64,000 nucleotides of DNA from Eledone cirrhosa. Lineage: Eukaryota. The stretch spans positions 65,968,001 through 66,032,000 of the forward strand of contig OZ024740.1 in assembly GCA_964016885.1 (NCBI GenBank), in the 5' to 3' direction. Below are positions 6,870-63,115 of the stretch, piece by piece; the stretch's first letter is position 1, and each line of letters starts with the position of its first letter. Under the pieces are notes generated by a model that made no database searches, was not told the origin of the DNA, and was given only the letters and a program-made list of their open reading frames with translations. Both the position numbers and the translations under genes were made by a program.

Positions 6870-7274
6870 GTGCCGAAACATAAGTCAATTGCATGAACTC
6901 ATAATCCTTTATTTACTGCTATATATATTTCGATGACAGCCATTGAATGGCTATGACCTCATCAGGCAGTTAGTCAGTTCTTAGATATGCCACTTCTGTG
7001 TTTATATTGTTGATGGTATCAGAGTCCCAATGCTCTGATACCATCAACAATATAAACACAGAAGTGGCATATCTAAGAACTGACTAACTGCCTGATGAGG
7101 TCATAGCCATTCAATGGCTGTCATCGAAATATATATAGCAGTAAATAAAGGATTATGAGTTCATGCAATTGACTTATGTTTCGTCACTATTATAACTCCG
7201 GAACTTATATGTTCGTTGATGCCCCCTATCCGCATACTGAAGTACTGGATTTTACCAACACTTACTTTCTTGCT
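6870..7274. mobile_element. Palindromic PLE 3'-end pair (family A)
   Basis: 6870-7024 is inverted at 7033-7190 with an 8-nt spacer, flanked by (TA)n. HHRs at 6915-6970(-) and 7087-7142(+). Relatives at 16030-16545 and 50620-51357. Confidence 0.85.
7087..7142 (+). ncRNA. Type I hammerhead ribozyme motif
   Basis: actgc-CTGATGA-ggtcatagcc(attcaat)ggctgtcatc-GAAA-tatata-TA-gcagt followed by AATAAA. Mirror copy at 6915-6970(-). Confidence 0.85.
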
Positions 7275-8012
7275 TATATATATATATATATATATATACA
7301 TATACATATACTAATGGTAATCTGTGCTTTTCGAAAATTAATATCATTCCATTCGTTTGCAATTATACAAAGAAGCCTCACTGTTAAAGCCATGTCAGTA
7401 GAATGGACAACTTCATGTATGCTCTTGCGTTGGCATGTAAACAGAACTGCAGACACGAATGTTTCTGGGTATCAGCCTTCATCAGTACAGCTCACTGATC
7501 AGTTGTCAACTGTCAGAGCTAGTGATAATACATGCTATTTTCTAAAATATACAGTGACTGATCGGTCTGATTTGCATATTAGCAGACTGGCTGATCAGTC
7601 AGATCTGCATGATATCAGATCCACTGATCAGCCTGATTTGCATATCAGCAGACTGGCCAGTCAGTTTCCTGTCAGATTCCAGTCAGTTTCCTGTATATGA
7701 CCGATAAATGGCCGGCTTTGCCACATTAAAAAATAATATGATAAATGTAATCCGAGTTTGACTCTCACCACACAATATGAACCTGAAGATTGCGAAAGCA
7801 TGAAAGTACTTGTTCAATTAACACTTAACATTTAATATTCTACCATACTATTTCATTCTAATACCATTATCAATTTTAAAGGATTGTAAATAAAATGAGT
7901 AAATCAGACAAAGTTGGAATTCCTTTTATTAATATAATCTTCTATACACAATCATACACACCCGTGTGTATTTAGCTATATATATATATATATATCTATA
8001 TATATATTTATG

Positions 8013-8186
8013 TAGCGAGGGAAAAGTGGTAAGGTGGACCATAACGCACCAAAGTACTCAATACTTAGGGTAGTAGAGTGGGAAATAGGAGTAAGTAAGA
8101 CCCCGACGGCTGAGCTCAAGCCGTTTCGACGGCTAATTCTGTCGAAACGGCTTGAGCTCAGCCGTCGGGGTCTTACTTACTCCTAT
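8013..8186. mobile_element. Palindromic PLE 3'-end pair (family B)
   Basis: 8085-8131 is inverted at 8141-8186, flanked by TA tracts. Same sequence as 10985-11297 and the PLE-4 terminus 62490-62700. Confidence 0.8.
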
Positions 8187-8197
8187 ATATTTATATA

Positions 8198-8341
8198 CAC
8201 TCCGCACGCCATCTCACAGTCTGTGGCCTACTCCAGTGCCACGGAACACCCGCCCATCGCCTTACGGTCGAACAACGTACTATCTTCATCTTACAGACCC
8301 ACACTCCCCCCGGCCTGAACTCCCCACCCTTATTCCTTTAG
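8198..8341 (+). pseudogene. C-terminal GIY-YIG endonuclease remnant of a Neptune-like PLE
   Basis: Manual translation HSARHLTVCGLLQCHGTPAHRLTVEQRTIFILQTHTPPGLNSPPLFL* matches the R..E...I..L.T..P.GLN ending of PLE endonucleases. Confidence 0.65.
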
Positions 8342-59690: not shown

Positions 59691-59712
59691 TATACATATT
59701 TTTTGGCCTCCA

Positions 59713-62700
59713 AATTCTATCATGGCAATTTGTGGAAGGAAGGGGTAGATGTACCTGACAGAAGAAGAAAGAGGGAGAGAGAGTGGAGGAAACCAGTCGT
59801 GCGTTGATAGTGCCGACTACAGCAGGATCCTAAGGGCAGGAGGTCAAGCAAGTATACTAGGGAGGGGGAGGGGGAAGAAGTCGAAACAATAAGTAAATCC
59901 ATATGGAGTAAATATATGGAAGAATACCAAAAATGTCAAAAATATAAAAAATAATTTCTGGTTACTATTCCCTAACCACAATCATCAAGTCGCTCACTGG
60001 TACTGCTAAACTATAGAAAAGTTTACTAGGTGGGACGGAATTGTAGTGGGACAATTTATGAGTTAGTAGTAATCAATCGAGTGTATCTTACAGTGACAAG
60101 TCAACAAGTGGGGGGCCAAAATACTAAAGAATCTACTACGAAATAATAATTCAGAGTCCCGAAACTAATACTAAATAATTGTTTCTACCCTAAGCACAAG
60201 GCCAGCAATTACCCAGTGCAACACATAAACTAATACGAAATAATAATTCAGAATCCCGAAAATGAATACTAATACTCTCTCTAAGGGTGCCGCTACGATA
60301 CAAACATTCTAGTACAAACTACATAAATGCTCGTACGATATATATGAAAAAATTTGATACGGAAAATTAATTCAGAATCCCCTGATCCGAGTAAACTTCC
60401 TAGACGTTACCCTTGACCTCGATAATGATCTGTACTACCCATACAGGAAACCCAACGTCAACCTGGTCAAACCATCCTAGGAACATCACCAACAACCTGG
60501 TTAAAAACATCTCCCTCCGCATATCTCGTTTGTCCGCTAATGAGCAGATATTCGAGGAACATGCGCCTTATTACAACCTGGCCCTCAAGCGGAGTGGCTT
60601 CCGGGAGGAAATATCCTACTGTCCAGCTTCCATTAGCGGAACCAGCAGGCGGCACCGCCGCTAACGCAATGTAACATGGTTTAATCCACCCCACAATGCC
60701 GAGGTGAAAACTCCTATCGGGAAAATCTTCGTTAGGCTCATCGAAAAACACTTCCTACTACAACACCGCTACCACAACATAATCAACAAAAATACTATCA
60801 AACTCTCCTACAGCACCACACCTAACTTTGCACAAAACATCGTCTCCTCTAACAACAAAAAACTCACCCTCTATGGAAGAAATAAACTATATAGTAGTGG
60901 AGAGCCGACTAGGAGGTGCAACTGTCCTGATGGACCCATTTGCCCCCTCGACAACAGATGCCGAGATCGTAATGTGATCTACCAGTGCAACGTGAGGACG
61001 GACACCTCCAACAAAGCTTATATAGGATTAACCGCATGTGACTTCAATACACGGCTATACCAACACAGACATACTTTCCGAAACCCGGCCCGGCGTCACG
61101 CCACCACACTTTCGGGCCACATCTGGGACCTCAAAGATAACAATATTACCTATGATCTCACTTGGAGCTTACTGTCCAGAGCCAACTCTTACACGGGAGG
61201 ACGCCGTCCGTGCAATTTATGCTCGGAGGACACTTTACAAATGCTGTTTTCGACGGACCAACTCCTAAACAAGAAAGACGAACTGGTAACTGCATGCAAA
61301 CACAGATTGCGTAGGACTTACCTCGCCCTCAAACCCTATAATGACCCGGGGGAAGTAGACAAGGGGTGTAACACCCCACTTGCCGACTTTGTAATGGGTA
61401 ACCCCTGCTTGCAAAGGTAGACGTAAGATTTTCTTTCATATCTTTTTATCGTTTCCTCTATATTTCCTTCTTACCCCATCACTTCCTAGTCCTCCCACCC
61501 CAGTCCTCCTTCTTTGTCGTCGTCCTTGTCACTTTCTCGCCCACCCCGAGGCAGCCCCTCGGTCCTGTGTAGATCAGTACCCCCACCCCATCCCCTATTC
61601 TATGATAGAATTGGCCGACTCCGCTTTTTATAGCAGATGTTATAGAGACCCAGATACTTGCTTTCTTATCCGATGGCTGCCTCATTTCCGTGCTTTCTAC
61701 ATCTCTTAGTGGTATCTCTGCTTTAGTTTCTCGTATATCAGTATTTATATTTGAGGGGTTGGGGGCGGGGGGGGGGGGGGTTCTGAATTAATTTTCCGTA
61801 TCAAATTGTTCATATATATCTTACGAGCATTTATGTACTTTCTACTAGAATTTTTGTATCGTAGCGGCAACCTTAGAGATAGTATTAGTATTCATTTTCG
61901 GGATTCTGAATTATTATTTCGTATTAGTTTATGTGTTGCACTGGCTAATTGCTGGCCTTGTGCCTAGGGTAGAAACAATTATTTCGTATTAGTTTCGGGA
62001 CTCTGAATTATTATTTCGTGGTAGTTTCTTTAGTATTTCGGCCCCTCACTTGTTGACCTGTAACTGCAAGTTATACTCGGTTGATTACTACTAACTCATA
62101 AAATTGTCCCACTACAATTCCGTCCCACCTAGTAAACTTTTCTATAGTTTAGCAGTACCAGTGAGAGACTTGATGATTGTGGTTAGGGAATAGTAACCAG
62201 AAATTCTTTTTTTATATTTTTAACATTCTTGGTATTCTTCCATATATTTACTCCATATGGATTTACTTATTGTTTCGATTTCCTACCCCTCCCCTTCCCT
62301 AGTATGCTAACTTGACCTCCTGCCCTTATGATCCTGCTGTAGTTGGCACTATCAACGCACGACTGGTTTTCTCCACTCCCTCTCCCTCTTTCTTCTACTG
62401 GCAGGTTCATCTACCCCATCCTTCCACAAATTGCCATGATAGAATTATGTGTCTCAACAACAAATTGTTGACCAATCCTTGTGACAAACACTTTTACCAT
62501 ATATGGAACTAACCCCTGAGAAGGTCGGCTATTCATATACCAGGGTAAACATTTTCATTTAGTGCAGAATTAGACGTCGAAACGGCTTGAGCTCAGCCGT
62601 CTGGTTCCTACTCGTTCCTATTACCCACTCTACTGCCCTAAGTATTGAGTACTTTGCTGCGTTATGTTCCACCTGGTTCCTTACCACATTTCCTTCGTTA
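59713..62700 (+). mobile_element. PLE-4: truncated Naiad-like element with diverged inverted arm
   Basis: 59713-60382 is inverted at about 61775-62446. The + copy continues into the family-B HHR terminus and (TA)n at 62700. Confidence 0.85.
60385..61420 (+). pseudogene. PLE RT thumb + GIY-YIG remnant
   Basis: VNFLDVTL, SNHPRNI, WFNPP, IKLSYSTTPN, CNCPDGPICP, YIGLTACDFNTRLYQH, CNLCSED, LLNKKDE, CKH; TAA at 60662. Confidence 0.85.
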
Positions 62701-62949
62701 TATATATATATATATACTATATATATTATATATATATATAATAAATATATAATATATATATATATATATATATATATATATATATATATATATATATATA
62801 TATATATATATATATATATATATATATATATATAATATATATTTCTTATATATATATATATATATATATATATATATATATATATATATATATATATATA
62901 TATATATATATATATATATATAAATATATATATATATATATATATATGT

Positions 62950-63115
62950 ATAGTTTTAATATAGATGAGATTCTACAGGACTAGAACTGTTTCATTCTTT
63001 AGAAATCATCAGGATTAGTCCTGTAGAATCTCATCTATATTAAAACTTTTATACTCTGCTATGTATTGAGTACCTTACTTACTGTGGTTACCTCCGGTTC
63101 AACCCGGAATAACGT
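62950..63115. mobile_element. Minimal palindromic HHR element (relative of 33744)
   Basis: Minus strand CTGATGA-tttc(taaa)gaat-GAAA-cagttctagtcctg-TA-gaatc. Shares the tail tgtattgagtaccttacttactgtggtta...tcaacccgg. Confidence 0.7.

Follow-up and report, generated by a model that had tools for sequence, protein, structure and literature searches.

The question raised by a 64,000-nucleotide stretch of the Eledone cirrhosa genome (NCBI GenBank assembly GCA_964016885.1, contig OZ024740.1, positions 65,968,001 to 66,032,000 of the forward strand; the whole stretch is referred to as the window) is why, in its inverted repeats, one arm extends further than its partner. The window is rich in inverted repeats and (TA)n tracts, and the arms are head-to-head insertions of Penelope-like elements (PLEs) within (TA)n. 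Nearly every insertion pairs a long end (L) with a short end (S). This geometry probably reflects twin priming, in which both nicked strands of the target prime cDNA synthesis at two hairpin-defined sites of one uncleaved mRNA.

All 15 arm pairs listed in a preliminary description of the window were present, and arm-to-arm alignment gave extensions within a few nt of its manual counts. The extensions were 61-71 nt at 3516 (a short overlap only), 59-61 at 5915, 81-85 at 6870, 72-77 at 8013, 79-82 at 10985, 57-59 at 11302, 84 at 12242, 84 in PLE-1, 79 at 33744, 86-90 in PLE-2, 91 in PLE-3, 83-89 at 53174, 59-62 at 56537, 68 at 62950 and 140-145 at 52031. The ambiguity of a few nt is due to TA micro-homology. 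Reuse of the same two end points by other copies was also seen as described, and the extension is therefore element sequence. The pair at 52031, previously set apart as an outlier, is not exceptional, as the tail of its family (H) always measures 140-148 nt (8 short ends).

The pairing was followed in the 3.0-Gb assembly, from which all genome-wide matches and loci were drawn (L plus a number, such as L080, denotes a fetched genomic locus). In unselected samples, 208 of 209 resolved insertions were long-short, 1 was long-long and none was short-short. A bimodal distribution of ends with long-short pairs far above chance had been proposed as a check, and both were seen. They support the earlier idea of two defined priming sites on the RNA, used as a long and short pair. 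For PLE-2, there were 1,973 exact matches to L and 6,082 to S; 140 anchors were fetched in order among the matches listed, and after removal of 2 duplicates and 29 solo, interrupted or out-of-range cases, all 109 resolved insertions were long-short, with classing partly by eye and three weaker cases (L076, interrupted; L078, with an S arm of 6 nt; L180, with its L end just outside the stretch). In 1.05 Mb covering nine other families, 70 of 72 automatic pairs were long-short, and the remaining 2 were separate insertions. Among L-anchored loci, 15 long-short and 1 long-long were resolved out of 30 in family C, 11 of 19 were resolved as long-short in family A and 3 of 23 in PLE-1, the others being unresolved. 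Four apparent long-long cases of PLE-2 and PLE-1 (L080, L140, L295, L168) are tandems with internal read-through or inverted duplication, and L315 and L316 each hold two separate long-short insertions. Solo arms, flanked by (TA)n on each side and lacking an inverted partner, were also observed (L212, L229, L233, L234, L235; L090, L094, L122, L126) and are frequent in family C; their second arm may be of near zero length.

Long open reading frames (ORFs) inside the repeats carry the RW[K/R/T] and DKT motifs and the CxCX5C linker published for the Hydra clade. RW and DKT were invariant in all 7 aligned N-termini (PLE-2, C, H, D, A, PLE-3 and one further ORF), a DKT-coding sequence lies upstream of the broken ORF of PLE-1, and the linkers of the window ORFs read CNCRRASGC, CNCRDRSKC, CNCRIKNKC and CNCPDGPIC. 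The PLE ORFs also contain a YRDD-type reverse transcriptase (RT) motif and a [YF][IV]G..F..R endonuclease motif, and resemble published Hydra ORFs by eye; judged by eye only, the CCHH motif was not seen in the Hydra-type ORFs. Of 6 PLE fragments searched in Pfam, 5 matched no family and the sixth had sub-threshold matches to unrelated families; no match naming the PLE ORFs came from a PDB sequence search. Since these databases gave no name, the putative assignment to the Hydra clade rests on motifs. Seven families are so assigned, namely PLE-1, PLE-2, PLE-3, A, C, D and H. A Neptune-like identity of family D, drawn from neighbouring ORFs, was rejected, as its read-through copies carry a Hydra ORF. 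Families F and G we take to be Neptune-like and Poseidon/Nematis-like, respectively, as provisional labels from motif likeness. Copies number in the tens of thousands, with 20,512 exact long-end matches in family C alone. Terminal ends adjoin (TA)n, rarely (CT)n, and target-site duplications are unreadable within (TA)n. Partial tandems forming pseudo-long terminal repeats (pLTRs), together with an inverted 5'-truncated copy, are present (L080, L095, L140, L178; PLE-2 unit of 3772 bp). A type I hammerhead ribozyme (HHR) motif is predicted near most ends and was found by our own pattern scan in A, PLE-1/2/3, D, E and F, while the core in family C departs from CUGANGA; an Rfam search listed no hammerhead, only microRNA matches driven by microsatellites.

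Positions are counted here from the predicted HHR cut. In family A and PLE-1/2/3 the two ends lie at about +38 to +58 and +134 to +137, near the distances of the preliminary description, which do not hold generally: the corresponding values are about +20/+100 in family C and +13-22/+93 in family D. The ends are therefore not fixed relative to the ribozyme. Setting of the ends or inner junctions by the ribozyme cut was rejected, because family distances differ and few inner ends lie near the cut. The long end had also been raised as a possible transcript end, which is rejected, since tandem copies of PLE-2, PLE-3, C, D and H pass through L into a leader of 44-90 nt and then the ORF; copies of A and PLE-1 likewise read through L. 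Both sites are internal, within the 5' untranslated region (UTR) in Hydra families and within the ORF in family F. The S and L junctions alike end in a 2-7 nt TA/AT run (13/13 sites). A motif able to pair with (TA)n, noted earlier at short ends, is thus present there, and target pairing is not special to S. In L101 (303-465), a short arm runs on with about 70 nt of leader and ORF start that normally lie beyond the long site; a jump to a more distal part of the same read-through RNA would fit this.

Beside the Hydra-clade sites lies a predicted bulged RNA hairpin, composed of RCTC, an inner stem of 2-5 bp, a 2-nt 3' bulge (NN) and GAGY. Little other sequence is common to the tails of different Hydra families. 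Hairpin 1 follows S in all seven families (the window copies of A and H are mutated), and hairpin 2 follows L in six (PLE-2, PLE-3, C, H, A and PLE-1); hairpin 2 was first noticed in PLE-2 and PLE-3 and then predicted for the remaining Hydra families. The motif starts 3-7 nt past the junction at 13 measured sites. A tally of 12 full motifs, by script and by eye, showed compensatory pairing: the outer pair was A-U in 5 motifs and G-C in the other 7, with no mismatch, and the first inner pair was C-G (8 motifs) or U-A (4 motifs); PLE-2 subfamilies exchange CAA/TTG for CAG/CTG in the stem. Within two PLE-2 units (4.0 and 4.3 kb) the sense-strand motif occurs at the end sites only, with a background of 0.14 per kb per strand, and its rate in shuffled sequence is 0.06-0.16%. 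No fold joining the short and long sites was seen in RNA folding. Among the six published Hydra sequences in File S7 of PMC8557442, the motif is clear by eye in three, one from coral (Hydra-2_Amil) and two from sea cucumber (Hydra-2_Ajap and Hydra-1_Ajap, the latter with two motifs about 60 nt apart), and a variant is seen by eye in Hydra-1_Crog from a copepod.

The inner ends of the arms suggest where the copied RNA begins. They were mapped in 98 PLE-2 pairs (196 ends; 11 of 109 pairs dropped) and for 78 ends of family C (5 of 44 pairs dropped), dropped pairs being unmappable or unentered. In PLE-2, 42 of 196 ends fall within -145..-131 (5.5 expected), at the A of TCACTG, and 6 of 196 lie near the ribozyme cut (-12..+7); these few ends near the cut are read as the mark of an uncleaved template. 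Family C places 50 of its 78 ends at -47..-33, and the interval -77..-48 contains none; TATTTAAA is found about 29 nt upstream of this cluster. A TATAAATA box precedes the family D ends by about 30 nt. These two families have a TATA sequence at about -30 from the pile-up. A full-length PLE-2 arm of L178 stops at -143 of the upstream pLTR. Read against the usual spacing of a TATA box or an initiator (Inr) relative to a start, these pile-ups would represent transcription starts at a promoter-like site, at about -139 in PLE-2, -41 in C and -45 in D. No cap-derived extra G was seen by eye at inner junctions. The Inr likeness of TCACTG is judged in part from PMC3846280, and PLE start sites within the pLTR are known (PMC8557442).

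Several observations concern the same region. In family C (62512-62600; L236, L239) the putative start lies inside the hammerhead, in the loop II region, with a core of CTGAGAA or TTGAGAA, so that RNA made from this promoter would be missing half of a ribozyme that may be inactive. Segments beside the putative start were repeatedly re-copied as fold-backs or tandems in L162 (474-1102), L279 (1747-2551) and L320, which suggests RT template jumping at the RNA 5' end. Multi-unit PLE-2 arms stop at recurring upstream points (-522/-524 in L080 and L106; -901/-907 in L090 and L140), possibly representing common source copies or further start sites.

The two arms of an insertion appear to come from one source. 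Among 28 PLE-2 pairs with an arm at the start site, 27 partners stay within -152, yet 84 of 196 arms pass -152; arm lengths correlate, short with short and long with long (49, 3, 11, 35; Fisher p 2e-13). Since start-limited arms have limited partners, both arms would have been primed within one and the same pLTR copy, and a single RNA is the simplest template for this, although simultaneous arrest of two RTs could contribute to the joint stops. Over about 118 nt, an arm and its partner differ by a mean of 0.7 changes, compared to 5.2 between insertions, the partner being nearest or tied in 34 of 40, and private variants are common to both arms. The sequences support the same source and the same pLTR copy for both arms, which may have come from one RNA molecule. 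The limited partners and common private variants are difficult to reconcile with an unlikely alternative, in which the two defined sites are used on two RNA molecules or in successive priming rounds, as in the first and second priming events of the preliminary description, and the state of the enzyme picks the site; nor does it give a reason for the absent short-short pairs. Kilobase arm overlaps would then need no strand displacement, and the mixed pairs (L095, L099, L211), the three long-long insertions and one chimeric subfamily pair (L141) would fit.

A less probable explanation, following a suggestion in the part of PMC8557442 that deals with tails, is that synthesis of each arm begins at the long site and that one arm is afterwards cut back to the short site by the endonuclease, the motif being a DNA recognition site. 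The short sites are TA-rich as the target is, long-long products occur, and the D. virilis endonuclease needed the tail for recognition (PMC11167929). Trimming would leave unexplained that the two sites are followed, at equal spacing, by one and the same motif, which covaries as a single-strand stem does, that the long-site copy of the motif is absent from the terminal DNA, and that both sites are RT start sites in vitro (PMC11167929); a trimmed end would also need re-joining to (TA)n.

Arm overlap bears on a further explanation. In 10 of 98 PLE-2 pairs the long arm begins at or beyond +49 and does not overlap the short arm, and in 47 of 98 the short arm reaches further 5'; non-overlapping or further-reaching short-arm cases also occur in C, D, F and H. 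Many long arms consist of the tail only. Two primings on the RNA are therefore needed where long arms never reach the short site. A single priming followed by fold-back or self-priming, with the second arm a copy of the first, is highly improbable, because a copy cannot hold what the first arm lacks, even if it would account for near-identical arms, palindromic junctions and the repeated hairpins of L162 and L279. As a general route, fold-back is contradicted by the non-overlapping arms, and survives only as a secondary junction event. Among 60 PLE-2 junctions the arm alignments overlapped in 33 and abutted in 4; another 18 had a filler no longer than 40 nt between the arms, and 5 were unmapped. 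An artefact of assembly, or a subsequent deletion reaching into the (TA)n flank, has a negligible chance, for although palindromes and microsatellites are hard to assemble, the family-specific fixed ends are bimodal on many contigs, arms differ by a few percent, and 22 and 19 public short-read contigs (two runs of one sample, possibly the assembly's own) show loose (TA)n ends where the short site of family A lies (7190).

In the favoured reading, twin priming on one mRNA, the element protein would nick both strands of a (TA)n tract and one cDNA would begin from each strand. The two cDNAs would start at two internal sites of one ribozyme-uncleaved RNA, set in the Hydra clade by the bulged hairpin 3-7 nt downstream, and each hairpin would load one RT active site of a dimer like the one modelled for the lizard protein. 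Extension would proceed toward the 5' end of the RNA in both cDNAs, and where they overlap the long cDNA would displace the short one. Strand displacement is plausible without RNase H. The cDNA 3' ends would then join by micro-homology and fill each other in, so that the inverted structure would arise without separate synthesis of a second strand. Short fold-backs stopping at the transcription start (about 190 bp in C and D; about 470 bp in PLE-2) would come from priming in the 5' pLTR copy, and long arms from priming in the 3' pLTR copy. With a little less assurance, though on balance still in its favour, it is proposed that the Hydra clade possesses a bipartite 5' UTR cis-element: two bulged hairpins, found from coral to sea cucumber, would load two RTs on one mRNA, each nicked (TA)n strand would be primed at its own site, twin priming would be the normal route with second-strand priming unneeded, and the inner junctions would map the start.

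A number of points weigh against these proposals. The motif was found by eye and post hoc, and the long-site searches for C, H and D demanded 'CTC' but left the other motif positions free, while no such demand was made for A and PLE-1. By eye, it is not clear in two of the six published sequences (Hydra-1_Amil, Hydra-1_Obim; PMC8557442). Family D has only a shorter GCAC/GTGC 4-bp stem after its long site, RNAfold prediction of the hairpins was inconsistent, and tail z-scores were mostly unremarkable. Families F, G and E show equally strict asymmetry without the motif, and the hairpin is therefore not the general cause. True long-long insertions occur in L219 (family C) and in L317 and L318 (PLE-1, from a targeted look at six suspect places); together with the solo arms they make the long-short rule strong but not absolute. 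PLE-2 has no TATA box at -30, and a start-limited arm is combined with a long arm in L095, L099 and L211. The likeness of arms could come from later gene conversion. Repeated fold-backs at some junctions (L162, L279) mean that the RT also switches template onto cDNA. An excess of PLE-2 long arms stalling at the short site, which collision of two RTs on one RNA might produce, was not seen (7 vs 6), and 4 family C long arms starting at +13..+27 are only suggestive of such a collision.

In L1 twin priming, reportedly described by Ostertag and Kazazian in 2001, both target strands prime one RNA and the cDNAs join by micro-homology to produce an inversion. Priming there is said to use the poly(A) end plus an internal site whose position varies, and to give little overlap, whereas here both sites are fixed and internal and overlaps reach kilobases.

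Among PLEs, the long and short signature had been regarded as undescribed, but a one-sided tail and two RT start sites are already in print (PMC3846280, PMC8557442, PMC11167929), and with them the signature and the two-site inference. In the relevant passages, an optional 31-bp tail on one inverted pLTR was described, and self-priming on an antisense template proposed, earlier (Arkhipova 2013, PMC3846280), and a 30-40 bp tail, often at one end only, was illustrated with a suggestion of endonuclease resolution (Craig 2021, PMC8557442, Fig. 2). The same passages of both papers agree with the present elements in the inverted 5'-truncated copy at the 5' end, one-end extension, partial tandems, an HHR in the pLTR and (TA)n targets; the tails given there are 30-40 bp and optional, compared to 57-148 nt, fixed per family and long-short in 208 of 209 resolved insertions here. 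As far as the sections on endonuclease-containing (EN+) PLEs in PMC8557442 extend, their Hydra clade has the same RW[K/R/T], DKT and CxCX5C motifs, canonical HHR and (TA)n insertion, and a C-terminal endonuclease to which the putative GIY-YIG-type one of the present ORFs would correspond, with units generally <3 kb, compared to about 3.5-3.8 kb in PLE-2 and C.

The closest biochemical counterpart is the PLE protein of the green anole lizard (Poseidon PAc; Frangieh 2024, PMC11167929), which cuts and extends both strands in vitro. Its RT begins at two internal sites that flank the tail, requires RNA up to +172, uses uncleaved RNA and is modelled as a dimer; the AT-rich target is alike, and in the reading proposed here the two internal starts bracketing the tail, double-strand cutting and extension, uncleaved template and predicted dimer would be so too. 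The PAc starts lie inside the ORF in an AC-rich stem-loop (PMC11167929), whereas the Hydra sites here lie in the 5' UTR, each with an RCTC..GAGY hairpin (only the 4-bp stem at the long site of D). That paper does not report per-insertion long-short pairing, a single template or run-off at the start site. The words hairpin and stem-loop gave 0 matches in the main text of PMC8557442, and a literature search together with a word search of that paper did not find the paired hairpin, per-insertion pairing counts or PLE twin priming. The asymmetry by itself is known; the paired hairpin is a likely new cis-element, and the proposed mechanism is testable.

The coordinates of the features are collected in the table.

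Table. Features of the window (strand in brackets; ribozymes, hairpins and starts are predicted).
Feature	Position	Details
Family G pair	3516..3746	long end 3516 (-), tail 61 nt, no hairpin motif
Family E pair (non-coding, HHR-bearing)	5913..6790	long end 5913 (-), tail ~60 nt, no hairpin motif
Family A (Hydra clade) fold-back	6868..7275	short arm 6868-7025 (-), long arm 7031-7275 (+); HHR cut ~7137/7138; tail ~7191-7275; hairpin mutated here, intact in 19 other copies
Family C short fold-back	8008..8186	long end 8008 (-), hairpin 1 at 8079-8056 (-)
Family C pair	10982..11295	long end 10982 (-)
Family F pair	11301..12100	long end 12100 (+), tail 59 nt within ORF, no hairpin motif
PLE-2 subfamily pair	12240..12712	long end 12242 (-), short end 12712 (+)
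PLE-1 insertion	16621..24236	long end 16621 (-), short end 24236 (+), hairpin 1 at 16700-16679 (-)
PLE-1 Hydra-type ORF	19466-21481 (+)	
Family D short fold-back	33745..33931	long end 33931 (+), hairpin 1 at 33868-33886
PLE-2 insertion	37135..43112	long end ~37137 (-), short end 43112 (+), hairpin 1 at 37220-37201 (-)
Extra HHR-bearing family, intact hairpin 1	45065-45030 and 59174-59139 (-)	
PLE-3 insertion	45552..49888	short end 45552 (-), long end 49888 (+), hairpin 1 at 49805-49829 (+)
PLE-3 unit		ORF 49267-47075 (-); internal read-through of long site at 49348
PLE-3 hairpin 2	49322..49339 (-)	starts 6 nt 3' of long site, read-through copy, upstream of ORF
Extra HHR-bearing family, long-short pair beyond the 15 listed	49952..50520	tail ~75 nt
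Family H (Hydra clade) pair	52028..52938	tail 140-145 nt, fixed for family
PLE-2 pair	53174..54472	short end 53174 (-), long end 54472 (+), HHR cut 54335/54336, hairpin 1 at 54392-54411
Initiator-like TCACTG	54194..54199 (+)	A at 54196; pile-up site of PLE-2 inner ends; putative transcription start
Family E tandem and inverted arm	56536..58440	long end 56536 (-), short end 58440 (+)
Family C long arm	62460..62700 (+)	TATA-like box ~62530, putative start 62561, hairpin 1 at 62627-62650
Family D short fold-back	62948..63115	long end 63115 (+), hairpin 1 at 63053-63071

The family E tandem at 56536-58440 consists of three 466-bp non-coding units with one type I HHR each, and is retrozyme-like with the long-short geometry of a PLE and without the hairpin. 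In the consulted portion of a study of non-LTR (animal) retrozymes (bioRxiv 10.64898/2026.07.22.740005), relevant to family E only, the non-coding tandem with one type I HHR per unit is alike, and inverted arms and two end points are not discussed. The extra HHR-bearing family is also found at 44990-45480 and 58522-59690, in units of about 500-580 bp with the hairpin 1-2 nt past the short end. A 329-bp near-perfect palindrome at 51028-51356 has no (TA)n flank and is assigned to none of the named families, and fragments of long interspersed nuclear element (LINE)-type reverse transcriptase (Pfam RVT_1) occur at 35067-36560 and 10415-10951. Elsewhere in the genome, the partner arm comes from another PLE family or subfamily in L147 (4337-4365), L230 and L141, as chimeric events or nested insertions. 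A family F unit in L093 (1139-5683) has an open frame of 1329 codons with a long asparagine-rich insert, like those of rotifer Penelope, and a 430-codon frame near a family F insertion in L099 resembles, by eye, a seven-transmembrane receptor.

The origin of the inverted pLTRs and one-sided tails of PLEs is named as open in PMC8557442, and the steps after initiation are described as unvalidated in PMC11167929. If the hairpins position the starts, breaking one should remove one class of ends, and a changed spacing should shift the tail length. The paired hairpins would define a minimal RNA signal for a (TA)n-targeting insertion enzyme, and would provide annotators with a rule for element ends and start sites.

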